Positions 35,518 through 41,400 of a stretch of 64,000 nucleotides of DNA are shown here, one piece after another. Source of the DNA: Chitinophagaceae bacterium (GTDB taxonomy: Bacteria; Bacteroidota; Bacteroidia; Chitinophagales; Chitinophagaceae). The number at the start of each line of letters is the position of its first letter. The first letter of the stretch is position 1. Under the pieces are notes generated by a model. The model searched no databases. It worked only from the letters and a program-made list of their open reading frames with translations, and was not told the origin of the DNA. Both the position numbers and the translations under genes were made by a program. The stretch covers positions 7,237 to 71,236 of the forward strand of contig JAICZH010000001.1 of the NCBI GenBank assembly GCA_025933775.1, read 5' to 3'.

Positions 35518-35538
35518 TTCCCCTTCGGGGTTAGGGGC
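35518..35538 (+). repeat. REP-like palindrome overlapping the MarR stop codon
   Basis: TTCCCCTTCGGGGTTAGGGGC; same family as 40096-40119. Confidence 0.75.
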
Positions 35539-35974
35539 TAAGATTCTCATACACTTTTTGTAAAACTTCTTTAGCCATATCAATCTGTGCAATCGTTACG
35601 CCAGTCAATGCTTCATTTAAAGTTTTATTTGCCAAAGCCATTGTTTTTTCCTGAAGGGTTAATGCTTCTTTGGTTAAATAAATCAGGTTGATTCTTCTGT
35701 CATCTTTTGATGGAATTCTTTTTACTAATTTTTGTTTTTCAAGATTATCAACCAACCGTGTTATGCTGGGTTTATCACGAAACGTAGCATCGCACAACTG
35801 TTGCTGGCTCTGGCCTTCCTGCTTCCATAAATGATATAGTACACTCCATTGCTCAATGGTAATATCAATGCCGGCTCGCTTAAAATTTTTTTGCAATCTG
35901 CGTGCAACGGCTGTAGAAGCCTTGCCTGTAATAAAGCTGTACAGTTCGCCTTTCTTAAATTGGTTGTTTGGCAT
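35531..35974 (-). CDS. MarR-family transcriptional regulator
   Basis: ITIEQWSVL, DKPSITRLVDNLEKQKLVKR, DDRR. Confidence 0.95.
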   Translation of the reverse strand: MPNNQFKKGELYSFITGKASTAVARRLQKNFKRAGIDITIEQWSVLYHLWKQEGQSQQQLCDATFRDKPSITRLVDNLEKQKLVKRIPSKDDRRINLIYLTKEALTLQEKTMALANKTLNEALTGVTIAQIDMAKEVLQKVYENLSP

Positions 35975-36076: not shown

Positions 36077-37240
36077 ATGATTTTTTGGCTGATAACAATT
36101 TTTCTTTTATTGCCATATCTTTTTTTGCTGCTGTATTACAGGCAAGGATGGGTTGAGATGAAAAATTATGTTCCTTCCAAACCATTTACAGAAGCGGGGC
36201 TTCCATTTGTTTCTATAATTATTGCTGCGCGTGATGAAGAAAAAAATATTGGCAATTGCATTCGCTCAATTATTAATCAAACTTATCCGCAAACAAAATT
36301 TGAAATTATAATTATTAATGACCATTCCACGGATAATACCGTTTCAATTATTAATTCATTTCAAAAAGAAAATATTTTGATTTTAAACCTTGCTGATTAT
36401 ACCAAAAACGAAATTTTAAATTCATACAAAAAAAAATCCATAGAAACTGCCATGCAATTTGCAAAAGGAAATTTAATTGTAACTACAGATGCAGATTGCA
36501 TGGTTCCTGAAAGATGGCTGGAAACAATTGCATTTTTTTATAAAGAAAAAAAACCGGTTTTTATTGCGGCTCCTGTTATTTTTTCCCCCTCTCCCCCCGG
36601 GGAGGGGTTAGGGGTTCGGCTTTTAAAAATTTTTCAGTCACTCGATTTTATAACGTTGCAGGGAATTACAGGCTCATCGGTTCATAAAAAATTTCACAGC
36701 ATGTGCAATGGCGCTAACCTGGCCTATGAAAAAAAAATTTTTTATGAAGTAAACGGTTTTGAAAATATAGATACGATTGCCAGCGGCGATGATATGCTGC
36801 TGATGTATAAAATTCAAAAAATTTATCCTCACAAAATAGAATATATAAAATCGTCAAACGTAATAGTACAAACGCAACCGGCACAGAATATTAAAGAATT
36901 TATAAGCCAAAGAATACGCTGGGCAAGCAAAGCAGATAAGTACAGTGATAAAAAAATAACTGCGGCTCTTTTACTGGTGTATCTTTTAAATGCATGGATT
37001 TTTATTTTAGGTATTTCATCTTTTTTTGTGAGCCAAATTTTTTATTTGTTTTTAATCGCATTGATTATAAAAATTTTTATGGAATTAATTTTTCTTTTTC
37101 CAATTGCTATCTTTTTTAAAAAACAAAAACTACTTTGGTGGTTTGTACCTTCGCAACCTTTTCATATCATTTATATTTTAATTGCAGGATGGTTGGGAAG
37201 ATTTGGAAGTTATAAATGGAAAGGCAGGAAGGTGAAATAA
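36077..37240 (+). CDS. Membrane glycosyltransferase family 2
   Basis: SIIIAARDEE, INDHSTD, TTDADC, SGDDMLL, QRIRWASK; TM helices at both ends. Confidence 0.9.
   Translation: MIFWLITIFLLLPYLFLLLYYRQGWVEMKNYVPSKPFTEAGLPFVSIIIAARDEEKNIGNCIRSIINQTYPQTKFEIIIINDHSTDNTVSIINSFQKENILILNLADYTKNEILNSYKKKSIETAMQFAKGNLIVTTDADCMVPERWLETIAFFYKEKKPVFIAAPVIFSPSPPGEGLGVRLLKIFQSLDFITLQGITGSSVHKKFHSMCNGANLAYEKKIFYEVNGFENIDTIASGDDMLLMYKIQKIYPHKIEYIKSSNVIVQTQPAQNIKEFISQRIRWASKADKYSDKKITAALLLVYLLNAWIFILGISSFFVSQIFYLFLIALIIKIFMELIFLFPIAIFFKKQKLLWWFVPSQPFHIIYILIAGWLGRFGSYKWKGRKVK
36584..36618 (+). repeat. REP-like palindrome translated in frame inside the GT2 gene
   Basis: TCCCCCTCTCCCCCCGGGGAGGGGTTAGGGGTTCGG encodes SPSPPGEGLGVR. 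Confidence 0.8.
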
Positions 37241-39540: not shown

Positions 39541-39568
39541 TTTAGCATATATTTGCTAAATAATTTAG
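39541..39568. promoter_or_regulatory. umuD promoter with overlapping palindromic operators (candidate SOS box)
   Basis: TTTAGCA-N6-TGCTAAA (39541-39560) covers the -7 element TATATTTG (39548-39555); CTAA-ATAAT-TTAG at 39556-39568. Confidence 0.65.
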
Positions 39569-39581
39569 TTAAATTTATTTT

Positions 39582-40016
39582 ATGCGTACCGATAAATTTC
39601 TTTCTTCAAAATATACGGGCAGTAAAGCGATGACTCAGCTTGACATTCATTCCGCAAATGCAACCGGCTTCGGCGCTGCAGCCGATGATTACATGGAAAG
39701 AGGAATTGACCTTAATGAAGAGCTCATCCGAAACAAACCGGCAACTTTTTTTATGCGGGTAAGCAGCGATGCCATGAAAGAAGCAGGAATTTATAAAGGC
39801 GATGTAGTAATCGTTGACCGCTCCATAAAAGCAACGAATGGGAAAGTAATTATTGCCATGTTAAATGGAGATATGTTGATCCGTCGTTTTGAAAAAACAA
39901 ATAATAATATCAGGCTGGTTATTGATTCAAATAAATTGTCGCCGATAAATATTGACGCTACTTGCGAAGATTTCGCTATCTGGGGAGTAGTAACTTATGT
40001 GATTCATACGCCATGA
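39582..40016 (+). CDS. umuD: UmuD-like S24 family protein, catalytic dyad substituted
   Basis: TGFGAAADDY, LIRNKPATFFMRV, GDVVIVDRS, WGVVTYVIH; SDAM for GDSM and LIRR for TVKK. Confidence 0.85.
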   Translation: MRTDKFLSSKYTGSKAMTQLDIHSANATGFGAAADDYMERGIDLNEELIRNKPATFFMRVSSDAMKEAGIYKGDVVIVDRSIKATNGKVIIAMLNGDMLIRRFEKTNNNIRLVIDSNKLSPINIDATCEDFAIWGVVTYVIHTP

Positions 40017-40060
40017 CCCTATCCCCTGAAGAGAATAATTTTAAATGTATTCAATTATGA
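40013..40060 (+). other. 15-codon bridging ORF between umuD and umuC
   Basis: MTLSPEENNFKCIQL*; starts in an ATGA overlap with the umuD stop and ends in an ATGA overlap with umuC ATG 40057. Confidence 0.4.
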
Positions 40061-40122
40061 TTACTGACAGCCAACCAGATAAGACAGCTCTGAAATTCCC
40101 CCTTCAGGGGGTTAGGGGGTTT
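40016..40122. repeat. Inverted REP-like doublet at the umuD/umuC junction
   Basis: Degenerate reverse copy ACCCTATCCCCTGAAGAG (40016-40033) and forward copy TTCCCCCTTCAGGGGGTTAGGGGG (40096-40119). Confidence 0.65.
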
Positions 40123-41400
40123 AAAGCAATTGTTGATTGCAATAGTTTTTACTGTTCGTGCGAACGGGTTTTCAGGCCCGACCTGAAAAATAGGCCTGTA
40201 GTGGTTTTGAGCAATAATGATGGTTGTATTATTTCGCGAAGTGATGAAGCAAAGCTCCTCGGCGTGGAAATGGCAGGCCCGTATTTTAAAGCAAAAAATT
40301 TAATTGAAAAAAATAAAGTAGCTACGTTTTCATCCAACTACAATTTATACGGCGATATGAGCCGGCGGGTAATGGACACTTTAAAAATATTAATTGGCGA
40401 AAATAATGTAGAGGTGTATTCTGTAGATGAATGTTTTTTAGATGTAAGCATGATTGAGAAAAATTTGCTTTATGCGTGCGCATTGCAAATGAGAGAAACA
40501 GTAGAGCAATGGACGGGAGTGTCGGTTTCGGTAGGAATAGCGGCAACAAAAACTTTAGCAAAAATTGCCAATCATCTTGCTAAAAAAAATAAAGCAGCAA
40601 CAAAATGTATAGCAACAATTATTACCGAAGATGATGTAAGAAGCGTATTAAAAAAAACTCACGTAAAAGAAATATGGGGCGTAGGAACAGCTTATGCTGA
40701 AAAATTAATTAACTGGGGAATTACTACTGCATGGGACCTTTGCAATATGCCCGAAGAATGGATACATAAGCATATGGGAGGAGTGGTGGGCGTAAGGCTT
40801 GTGAAAGAATTAAAAGGAATACCGTGCATTGAGATGAAAGATGAATTGAAAGTAAAAAAAATGATTGCTACCACCCGTATGTTTGGCAAAAATATTACAG
40901 AGCTGGATGATATTAAAGAGGCCATTGCCACCTATGCCACAAGGGCAGCAGAAAAATTAAGAAGGCAAAAATGTGCTGCTTCTGTGGTAAGTATTTTTAT
41001 AGTGGCGAAAGAAGAAACCCATTCTGTAAATTTTAGCCATGGCACTACATTAAGCACTCATACTATTCTGCCTTTTGCCACATCTGTTACCAACGAACTT
41101 ATTGCGCCTGCGCTGCAATTGGCAGAACAAATATTTAAACCGGGCCGCGAATATAAAAAAGCAGGTGTGATGTTAAGCGGCCTTGTTCCGGATACGTCTA
41201 TTCAAAGTAATTTATTTACACCTTTATCTGAAAACAATAAACGTTTTTTAATGGAAACCCTTGACAATATTAATTTCAGCATGAGAAATGACATAGTAAA
41301 ATTTGCATCCTCCGGGCTTAGCCGCGATTGGAAAATGAGAAAAGAATTTCGTTCTCCGAGATATACTTCAAGATGGAATGAATTAAAACAAGTAGGATGA
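40045..41400 (+). CDS. umuC: Y-family DNA polymerase (UmuC-like)
   Basis: IVDCNSFYCSCE, VLSNNDGC, YSVDE, VSVGIAATKTLAKIAN, SPRYTSRWNEL; start 40045 or 40057. Confidence 0.93.
   Translation: MYSIMITDSQPDKTALKFPLQGVRGFKAIVDCNSFYCSCERVFRPDLKNRPVVVLSNNDGCIISRSDEAKLLGVEMAGPYFKAKNLIEKNKVATFSSNYNLYGDMSRRVMDTLKILIGENNVEVYSVDECFLDVSMIEKNLLYACALQMRETVEQWTGVSVSVGIAATKTLAKIANHLAKKNKAATKCIATIITEDDVRSVLKKTHVKEIWGVGTAYAEKLINWGITTAWDLCNMPEEWIHKHMGGVVGVRLVKELKGIPCIEMKDELKVKKMIATTRMFGKNITELDDIKEAIATYATRAAEKLRRQKCAASVVSIFIVAKEETHSVNFSHGTTLSTHTILPFATSVTNELIAPALQLAEQIFKPGREYKKAGVMLSGLVPDTSIQSNLFTPLSENNKRFLMETLDNINFSMRNDIVKFASSGLSRDWKMRKEFRSPRYTSRWNELKQVG

Follow-up and report, generated by a model that had tools for sequence, protein, structure and literature searches.

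Between umuD and umuC of the stretch analysed here (the window: 64,000 nucleotides (nt) of a Chitinophagaceae bacterium, GenBank assembly GCA_025933775.1, contig JAICZH010000001.1, positions 7,237 to 71,236), 106 nt with two inverted repeats separate the umuD stop codon from the conserved core of the polymerase. The question raised by this locus is where the spacer came from and how umuC obtained the start codon in front of it. The original prediction was that a doublet of repetitive extragenic palindromic (REP) repeats had parted umuC from its start, and that coupling to umuD was rescued by a two-step relay of ATGA overlaps. Comparison with related junctions points elsewhere. The spacer at 40017-40122 is quite probably a decayed, gene-less remnant of a cassette with a DUF559 gene, and umuC would now use the start codon of this remnant and be read through its right repeat.

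The spacer and its relatives at the umuD/umuC junction

A total of 140 umuD/umuC junctions was gathered from genomes and metagenomes, 118 of them of Chitinophagaceae type; close relatives were obtained protein by protein and through a umuD scan of metagenomes. Individual loci carry L numbers below. The relatives have in common a Radical_SAM gene and two 2_5_RNA_ligase2 genes ahead of umuD, and the nearest one, L081, shows 87% UmuC identity and 84% identity over the aligned junction. In Escherichia coli, a single base is common to the stop codon of umuD and the start codon of umuC (ATGA). The same overlap, in the form ..tATGAa/c.., was found in 15 of the 118 Chitinophagaceae-type junctions and would be the ancestral state of the family. 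In the window, by contrast, 106 nt lie between the two genes, which are no longer coupled by a direct overlap. The empty junction reads ..GTATGAAAGCAAT.., and when the junctions were aligned, the empty site predicted beforehand, gtATGAAAGCAATTGTTGA, was indeed found in distant relatives (L004 and L160, which read gcagtATGAAAGCAATTGTTGA). Deletion of 40016-40122 (107 nt) from the window yields ATG-AAA-GCA-ATT, that is ATGAAAGCAATT, as had been noted. Since L004, L160 and other junctions show the empty site, the spacer is read as an insertion into the ancestral one-base overlap (..tATGAaagc..). This part of the original prediction held, but the insertion is neither private to the window nor a plain REP doublet. 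The prediction was to be given up if relatives had a similar spacer and extension without the repeats; relatives with such a spacer and extension exist, which speaks against a private event, but they do carry the repeats. Contigs from four soil metagenomes were identical to the window over 39900-40250 and none had a joint skipping the element, so no presence/absence polymorphism was seen.

Eleven related loci, with six distinct sequences among them, have a DUF559 gene of 108-144 amino acids (aa) between the umuD stop and the umuC ATG, with the two inverted repeats of the window spacer on either side of it. Full cassettes occur in L009 (Sediminibacterium), L024, L175, L176-181 and L182, in the order umuD stop, CCCCCTnnCCCCCTGAAGGGG, open reading frame (ORF) of 108-134 aa, CCCCCTTTAGGGGGnTAGGGGG, a few bases and the umuC ATG; a rearranged form of this order, with an ORF of 144 aa, occurs in L183. 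The cassette ORF was recognised as DUF559 by PF04480 (E 2e-26 and 1.5e-34), by the NCBIfam name 'DUF559 domain-containing protein' and by PDB 3hrl (E 2e-23), and judged from these matches it belongs to the Vsr-like branch of PD-(D/E)XK nucleases. A homing endonuclease of a group I intron is among the members of the Vsr/DUF559 group (PMC3424549). The two flanks are inverted copies of each other, about 22 bp long and G/C-rich, each with a CCCCCT..AGGGGG hairpin, and in intact cassettes the right hairpin has the loop TTTAG, whose TAG ends the DUF559 gene. Most DUF559 genes examined start with ATGA, and that of L024 is frameshifted. No description of such a cassette was found in the papers searched that mention DUF559.

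The window spacer repeats this layout with the gene gone (Table 1). Both inverted copies announced for it are present, but the left one is degenerate, and a high-copy REP family is not visible in the window. The 21-mer CCCCCTTCAGGGGGTTAGGGG of the right copy (40098-40118) has no second match in the 64 kb even at 3 mismatches (0 expected), and the left copy is an imperfect inverted one with a 9-nt perfect complementary core (CCCCTGAAG/CTTCAGGGG). The other related copies in the window are just two, at 35520-35539 and 36585-36616, which gives one exact and three degenerate or related copies. The inverted pairing is not due to chance, because the same pair sits at the same position in relatives. 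The left end and leader of the window align with L081, L084, L089 and L099 and resemble L176; the counterparts of the leader read GGGGAATAAT... in the miniatures and in L099, where the left repeat is solo, and GGGGGAATCAAT... in L176. The right end, AAATTCCCCCTTCAGGGGGTTAGGGGGT, differs from that of L024 by one base (AAATTCCCCCTT(C/T)AGGGGGTTAGGGGGT), which turns the stop TAG into CAG, and the window peptide ..KFPL-Q-GVRG corresponds to the DUF559 C-terminus ..KSKFPL-stop continued into the repeat. These sequence comparisons show that the ends are homologous, that the site is shared and exists empty in relatives, and that the open frame is conserved; ATG 40057 is probably a descendant of the DUF559 start codon. 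Miniatures whose extension is homologous to that of the window are widespread among relatives. The unit has the features of a miniature inverted-repeat transposable element (MITE), namely terminal inverted repeats, no transposase and a probable derivation from a longer element.

The right joint reveals how the reading frame changed. The sequence there is GGGGGT ATG AAG GCA in full cassettes, GGGGG TTT AAA GCA in the window and L081 (1 nt fewer) and GGGGG TAT GCA in the sister type of L084, L089, L095 and L108 (4 nt fewer). With either small deletion, the umuC ATG is lost and the remnant ORF comes to be in frame with umuC. Since intact cassettes keep the umuC ATG after the right repeat, it was not the insertion itself that parted umuC from its start, contrary to what had been proposed, but the later small deletion, and ATG 40013 is therefore no orphaned umuC start.

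The history would then run as follows. From an ancestral junction with the one-base overlap ..tATGAaagc.., an intact cassette would have become lodged between a new umuD stop and the intact umuC ATG, its own TAG lying in the right hairpin loop. Three changes would have followed in the window lineage, in whatever order: most of the endonuclease ORF would have been deleted, leaving the leader, the start codon and about 13 codons; TAG would have become CAG; and the loss of 1 nt at the right joint would have destroyed the umuC ATG and fused the remnant ORF in frame with umuC.

Table 1. Features of the umuD-umuC region, in window coordinates.
Feature	Position	Strand	Remarks
Probable cassette remnant, whole (106 nt); gene-less miniature of the hairpin-bounded DUF559 cassette	40017..40122	+	Ends align with cassettes L009, L024, L175, L176 and L182 and with miniatures L081, L084 and L089
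Left terminal inverted repeat, decayed, CCCTATCCCCTGAAGAG	40017..40033	.	Relatives read CCCCCTnnCCCCCTGAAGGGG
A+T-rich leader AATAATTTTAAATGTATTCAATT	40034..40056	+	Resembles the stretch after the left repeat in relatives; holds the in-frame ATG 40045
umuC start codon predicted to be in use now (ATGA context)	40057..40059	+	In-frame ATG conserved in most extension-bearing relatives examined
UmuC N-terminal extension, 22 codons, MITDSQPDKTALKFPLQGVRGF	40057..40122	+	Last 8-9 codons are the translated right repeat
Right terminal inverted repeat CCCCCTTCAGGGGGTTAGGGGG	40098..40119	.	Loop TAG of intact cassettes is CAG here
Fusion joint, TTT in place of the umuC ATG	40120..40122	+	Intact cassettes and short-form relatives have ATG; window 1 nt shorter than L024, L176 and L182
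15-codon 'bridge' ORF MTLSPEENNFKCIQL	40013..40060	+	Present in the window sequence; lineage-specific
Candidate SOS operator CTAA-ATAAT-TTAG	39556..39568	+	14 nt 5' of the umuD ATG, within the palindrome TTAGCAtatattTGCTAA (39542-39568)
umuD homologue, 144 aa, Peptidase_S24	39582..40016	+	PF00717, E 1.9e-22; ends CCA TGA
umuC, 447 aa, IMS + IMS_HHH + IMS_C + DUF4113	40057..41400	+	Domain profiles; P0001 is the 447-aa public product

The UmuC extension and the ATGA overlaps

UmuC was compared with its 120 best homologues, which share 72-87% identity with it and belong to Chitinophagaceae, Ginsengibacter and Hanamia among them. Sixty-four of them start with MKAIVDC, and 39 carry an extension of 19-26 aa with the pattern MNxxxQ......K.PLQG.RG, plainly homologous to that of the window (for example MNNNYQSNEVAQKHPLQGFRGY-AIVDC and MITTNQLNMMAQKFPLQGVRGAF-AIVDC). 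The claim that the extension is partly encoded by the repeat was borne out. Most loci that lack the canonical start have an in-frame ATG 20-25 codons upstream (mostly 20-21, a few 24-25), with GTG in one case; in a few the extension is shorter (5-7 or about 18 codons). In the 21 codons preceding AIVDC, the umuC frame is free of stops in 17/17 distinct loci, while the other two frames are stopped in 11/17 and 16/17, and it stays open even where the repeat has decayed past recognition (ISLQSGKGL, ISSQSDKSL). The leader frame is kept open because the leader now carries the only start codon. In the window, the umuC frame is open from ATG 40045, and the start of the gene caller and the conserved start both fall at 40057; since 40045 is out of frame in L081, the conserved start is 40057. 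UmuC is therefore predicted to be translated from 40057 through the right repeat, giving 447 aa with a leader of 21-22 aa. This explains why UmuC proteins of this family of soil bacteria are systematically annotated with two lengths, 426 or about 447 aa, and shows which start to trust.

The two overlaps on which the relay was built are present in the sequence exactly as described: ATG 40013-40015 overlaps the umuD stop TGA 40014-40016 and opens the 15-codon ORF, whose own TGA at 40058-40060 overlaps the umuC ATG. In the proposed scheme, a REP doublet inserted between ATG and AAA left 40013 as the orphaned umuC start, and a selected two-step termination-reinitiation relay rescued expression. 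The scheme agrees with the empty-site sequence of L004 and L160 recreated by removal of the spacer and with the start of every miniature examined, which is ATGA, so that a TGA is always there to end any ORF entering in that frame. Furthermore, L107 also has ATGA at the umuD stop, there with the ATG directly in frame with umuC, which gives a potential 40-codon extension (P0086, 465 aa). It is very unlikely all the same, since in intact cassettes the umuC ATG is still in place beyond the right repeat, and 40013 is thus not its relic. Moreover, ATGA at the umuD stop was found in the window and L107 only (2/17 distinct extension-bearing junctions), the other 15 having CCN or GCN followed by TAA, TAG or TGA, and no ATG there. 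The bridge ORF was found in the window only and is absent or disrupted in L081, L084, L089, L095, L108 and others: in L081, the nearest relative, umuD ends in CCGTGA and two 1-nt indels break the ORF, and in L084 and L089 the umuD stop is TAA, with no upstream ATG. A proline codon followed by a stop gives CCATGA by chance in roughly 1 lineage in 10. The overlapping stops and starts exist, but the arrangement is not conserved in relatives with the same spacer; it reads as a private accident of the window genome and not as a conserved coupling device, and the bridge ORF as a by-product of CCA before TGA plus 14 A+T-rich codons that happen to lack a stop. It may help translation in the window organism. 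A different kind of selection, on the extension itself as a functional peptide of UmuC (contacting, for example, DNA, UmuD or the clamp), would account for a length held at 20-24 codons down to about 67% UmuC identity, for the nearly invariant Gln at position 6 and for the frame open in all 17 loci. However, the extension has little other sequence conservation, the same clade includes nested forms in which it measures 5-7 aa or is missing, and an open frame is needed anyway, the only ATG being upstream. Residues 1-20 have a predicted local distance difference test score (pLDDT) below 50, which is weak evidence as the AlphaFold model is poor (mean pLDDT 54, 24-row alignment). A selected peptide is accordingly regarded as improbable.

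Origin of the unit and history of the junction

REPINs consist of two inverted REP repeats with a short spacer (Bertels and Rainey 2011, PMC3116915), and REP palindromes have a conserved GTAG or CGTC tag at one end (PMC3733652). The window unit shows the two inverted copies (40017-40033 and 40098-40119) about 65 nt apart, and like REPINs and their REP-associated tyrosine transposases (RAYTs), the cassettes combine palindromic repeats tens of nucleotides apart, a single-copy gene with inverted copies of these repeats on its two sides, scattered solo repeats in the genome and persistence apparently by vertical descent. On these grounds, the 106-nt unit could have arrived on its own, as a non-autonomous REPIN- or MITE-like element moved in trans (for instance by a RAYT), instead of being a deletion remnant of the DUF559 cassette. 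This agrees with the two tandem miniature units of L183, with the related solo repeats elsewhere in the window and with Y1_Tnp/RAYT genes with their own hairpins at the same junction (L001, L006, L035, L102, L173; RAYT-like ORFs in L015, L021, L031, L036). Nevertheless, such an origin is rather unlikely. The repeats are those of the DUF559 cassette, and the RAYT genes at the junction carry different hairpins; site and orientation are identical to those of the full cassettes; and the sequence 5' of the right repeat matches the DUF559 C-terminus (KFPL). The cassette gene encodes a PD-(D/E)XK nuclease and not a Y1/HUH transposase. A search for the GTAG/CGTC tag found none, the copies reading GTTAG, GCTAG or GCAGG beside the hairpin, and the gene flanked by the same repeats is DUF559, with no RAYT in the window and one exact repeat copy in 64 kb. 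Another possibility is that the inverted repeats were kept because they fold, in the umuDC transcript, into a stabiliser or attenuator between the cistrons that sets the UmuD:UmuC ratio, with coding effects secondary. The arms do pair in the predicted fold (-33.2 kcal/mol, z -2.1, 7/200 shuffles as good), and the repeats around DUF559 remain nearly unchanged while UmuC drops to 65% identity. However, the fold has only a modest z-score, terminal repeats would pair by descent in any case, and in many extension-bearing relatives (L085, L086, L095, L107 and L108) one or both arms are decayed or replaced with the frame still open. A scan of Rfam gave nothing above noise, the top match being Listeria rli26 at 22.6 bits (gathering score 100, E 0.42). 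Conservation for RNA structure is thus given little probability.

Descent from a DUF559 cassette invites comparison with free-standing homing endonuclease genes, such as the seg/mob genes of phage T4 with their 'intronless homing', which pass through a cycle of invasion, degeneration and loss (the Goddard-Burt cycle). As with such genes, a small endonuclease gene lies exactly between two conserved adjacent genes at a fixed site (in the relatives; the ORF is gone in the window), its distribution across lineages is patchy with intact empty sites, and stages of decay are visible, from the frameshifted L024 to the gene-less window. Unlike them, the DUF559 cassette has hairpin inverted repeats, which homing endonuclease genes normally lack, and DUF559 identity mostly tracks host-gene identity. 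We know of no cleavage or homing demonstrated for any DUF559 protein of the cassette kind. Translated palindromes also have a parallel: Ogata and co-workers are said to have described, in 2000, Rickettsia palindromic elements whose repeats are translated inside genes. There, as here, a palindromic repeat is read as part of the host protein and tolerated, whereas the window repeat lies in no pre-existing ORF and would have become coding only after the host start was lost, also supplying the new start.

In a neighbour-joining tree of the UmuC core, the window falls in a clade whose basal members all carry the extension, the full cassettes fall in two other UmuC clades, and overlapping junctions are scattered throughout. 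The identities of DUF559 and UmuC co-vary (82/95, 62-64/83, 51-58/76-77 and 44-46/65-69%), with one outlier, the pair L176-L024 (58% DUF559 versus 65% UmuC). This is consistent with a cassette that was long inherited vertically, lost repeatedly and sometimes regained. A junction hit independently many times was considered and discarded, as the shared synteny and the co-varying identities favour mostly vertical descent with some gain and loss. The cassette may be mobile or have been so in the past, a point on which the nuoJ/nuoK copy and the hairpin-encoded DUF559 tails described below, the tandem units of L183 and the frameshifted L024 gene bear. A target-site duplication was sought at the element ends and none was consistent; ATG is present on both sides in L024 but not in others.

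Several points weigh against decay from a mobile cassette. Short-form relatives with the canonical ATG (L092, L098, L103) are nested in the extension clade of the tree, so the history includes reversals or recombination that the simple scenario leaves unexplained. The stretch between the repeats (40-60 nt) is too short and too diverged to prove descent from DUF559 over an independent miniature, and the tandem miniatures beside a full gene in L183 suggest that miniatures can multiply on their own. As regards mobility, DUF559 identity largely follows UmuC identity, as vertical descent would give. The choice of 40057 as start, over 40045 or a rare non-AUG codon near 40129, is likewise drawn from conservation; a search of RNA sequencing runs turned up none containing the locus.

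The same hairpin-DUF559-hairpin layout was found between nuoJ and nuoK (L184, 2430-2920), and hairpin-encoded C-terminal tails (for example PPLGG and PLQGARGL) occur in 44 of 120 DUF559 homologues. A wider reading, put forward tentatively, is that Bacteroidota DUF559 proteins are nucleases of unrecognised hairpin-bounded selfish cassettes at operon stop/start junctions (the SOS-controlled umuD/umuC, nuoJ/nuoK), mostly vertically inherited with occasional re-invasion, which decay to donate start codons and N-terminal peptides; the window would be the end stage. The relatives show, stage by stage, how a presumably selfish insert at a translationally coupled junction can come to provide an essential partner gene with its start codon and leader. 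DUF559, a large family without an assigned role in these bacteria, gains a testable context, with conserved hairpin bounds, a stop in the hairpin loop and a location inside operons, one of them predicted to be SOS-regulated.

The umuDC operon, other repeats and variant junctions

The CTAA-N5-TTAG motif upstream of umuD is kept in more than 20 relatives, and the window motif matches the operator bound by the non-canonical LexA of Bacteroidetes (PMC8565304). Since the motif is conserved and matches the published LexA site, the umuDC operon, plus any cassette gene lodged within it, is predicted to be SOS-induced. The umuC product has the IMS, IMS_C and DUF4113 domains of UmuC and lies downstream of the S24 UmuD-like gene; position 1 of the IMS profile falls at IVDC, and the conserved core (K)AIVDCNSFY runs from 40123. 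Aligned to E. coli UmuD', the window UmuD has Ala (SSDAM) at the Ser60 nucleophile and Arg (LIRRF) at Lys97, and Thr-Gly where E. coli UmuD has the Cys-Gly cleavage site. The UmuD proteins of L009 and L024 are alike (GDAM/EAM at the nucleophile, RR at the Lys position), which suggests that UmuD of these Chitinophagaceae is non-self-cleaving.

The solo repeat at 35520-35539, CCCCTTCGGGGTTAGGGGC, lies at the 3' end of a minus-strand MarR-like gene, whose stop codon is inside the repeat. The related G/C hairpin repeat CCCCCTCTCCCCCCGGGGAGGGGTTAGGGGTT at 36585-36616 lies in a GT2 glycosyltransferase ORF and is read as SPSPPGEGLGVR. A recent in-frame insertion of this repeat was considered and dropped, as the homologues show at this place a loop that is equally long but unrelated, and a few share GEGLGVR.

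Two cassette loci were inspected further. In L183 (2376-3200), the 3' end of a full DUF559 gene runs into another left-type repeat, followed by the two tandem miniature units (each a left repeat, then ATG and about 20 codons ending in the right repeat) and by the canonical umuC ATG; the annotated 445-aa UmuC of this locus is probably over-extended. In L184, the nuoJ stop TAA lies in the loop of the left hairpin CCCCTAAAGGGG, and the right repeat is read as MDVKSPFRGWGN in the annotated NuoK N-terminus, ahead of the likely true NuoK start.

Other junctions hold different inserts. The umuD-umuC spacers of L001/L155, L006, L035, L102 and L173 contain IS200-like Y1 transposase genes (PF01797, E about 1e-28 for the L006 and L102 ORFs; the assignment of the L001, L035 and L173 ORFs is by sequence likeness), and L001, L006 and L035 have their own REP-type palindromes. 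Those of L015, L021, L031 and L036 contain a RAYT-like ORF of 197-199 aa flanked by CCGCCGACGGG hairpins, which in L021 scores below threshold on NF047646 (E 7e-13). The umuD/umuC junction would thus be a repeated landing place for three kinds of hairpin-flanked genes. In the spacers of L085, L086/87 and L092-94, a second repeat type, CCTCACCCCAACCCTCTCCAAAGGAGAGGG, sometimes as an inverted doublet, stands in place of the left arm of the remnant, and it also occurs upstream of umuD in L005. In L029, a Chitinophagaceae metagenome-assembled genome, the spacer is filled by eight tandem copies of ACCTCCCAA.

Finally, many DUF559 homologues of about 125 aa (P0128-P0233) are called 'cyclase' or 'imidazole glycerol-phosphate synthase subunit HisF' in Joint Genome Institute annotations. 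This naming is probably a propagated misannotation, and it may hint at DUF559 copies adjoining hisF.

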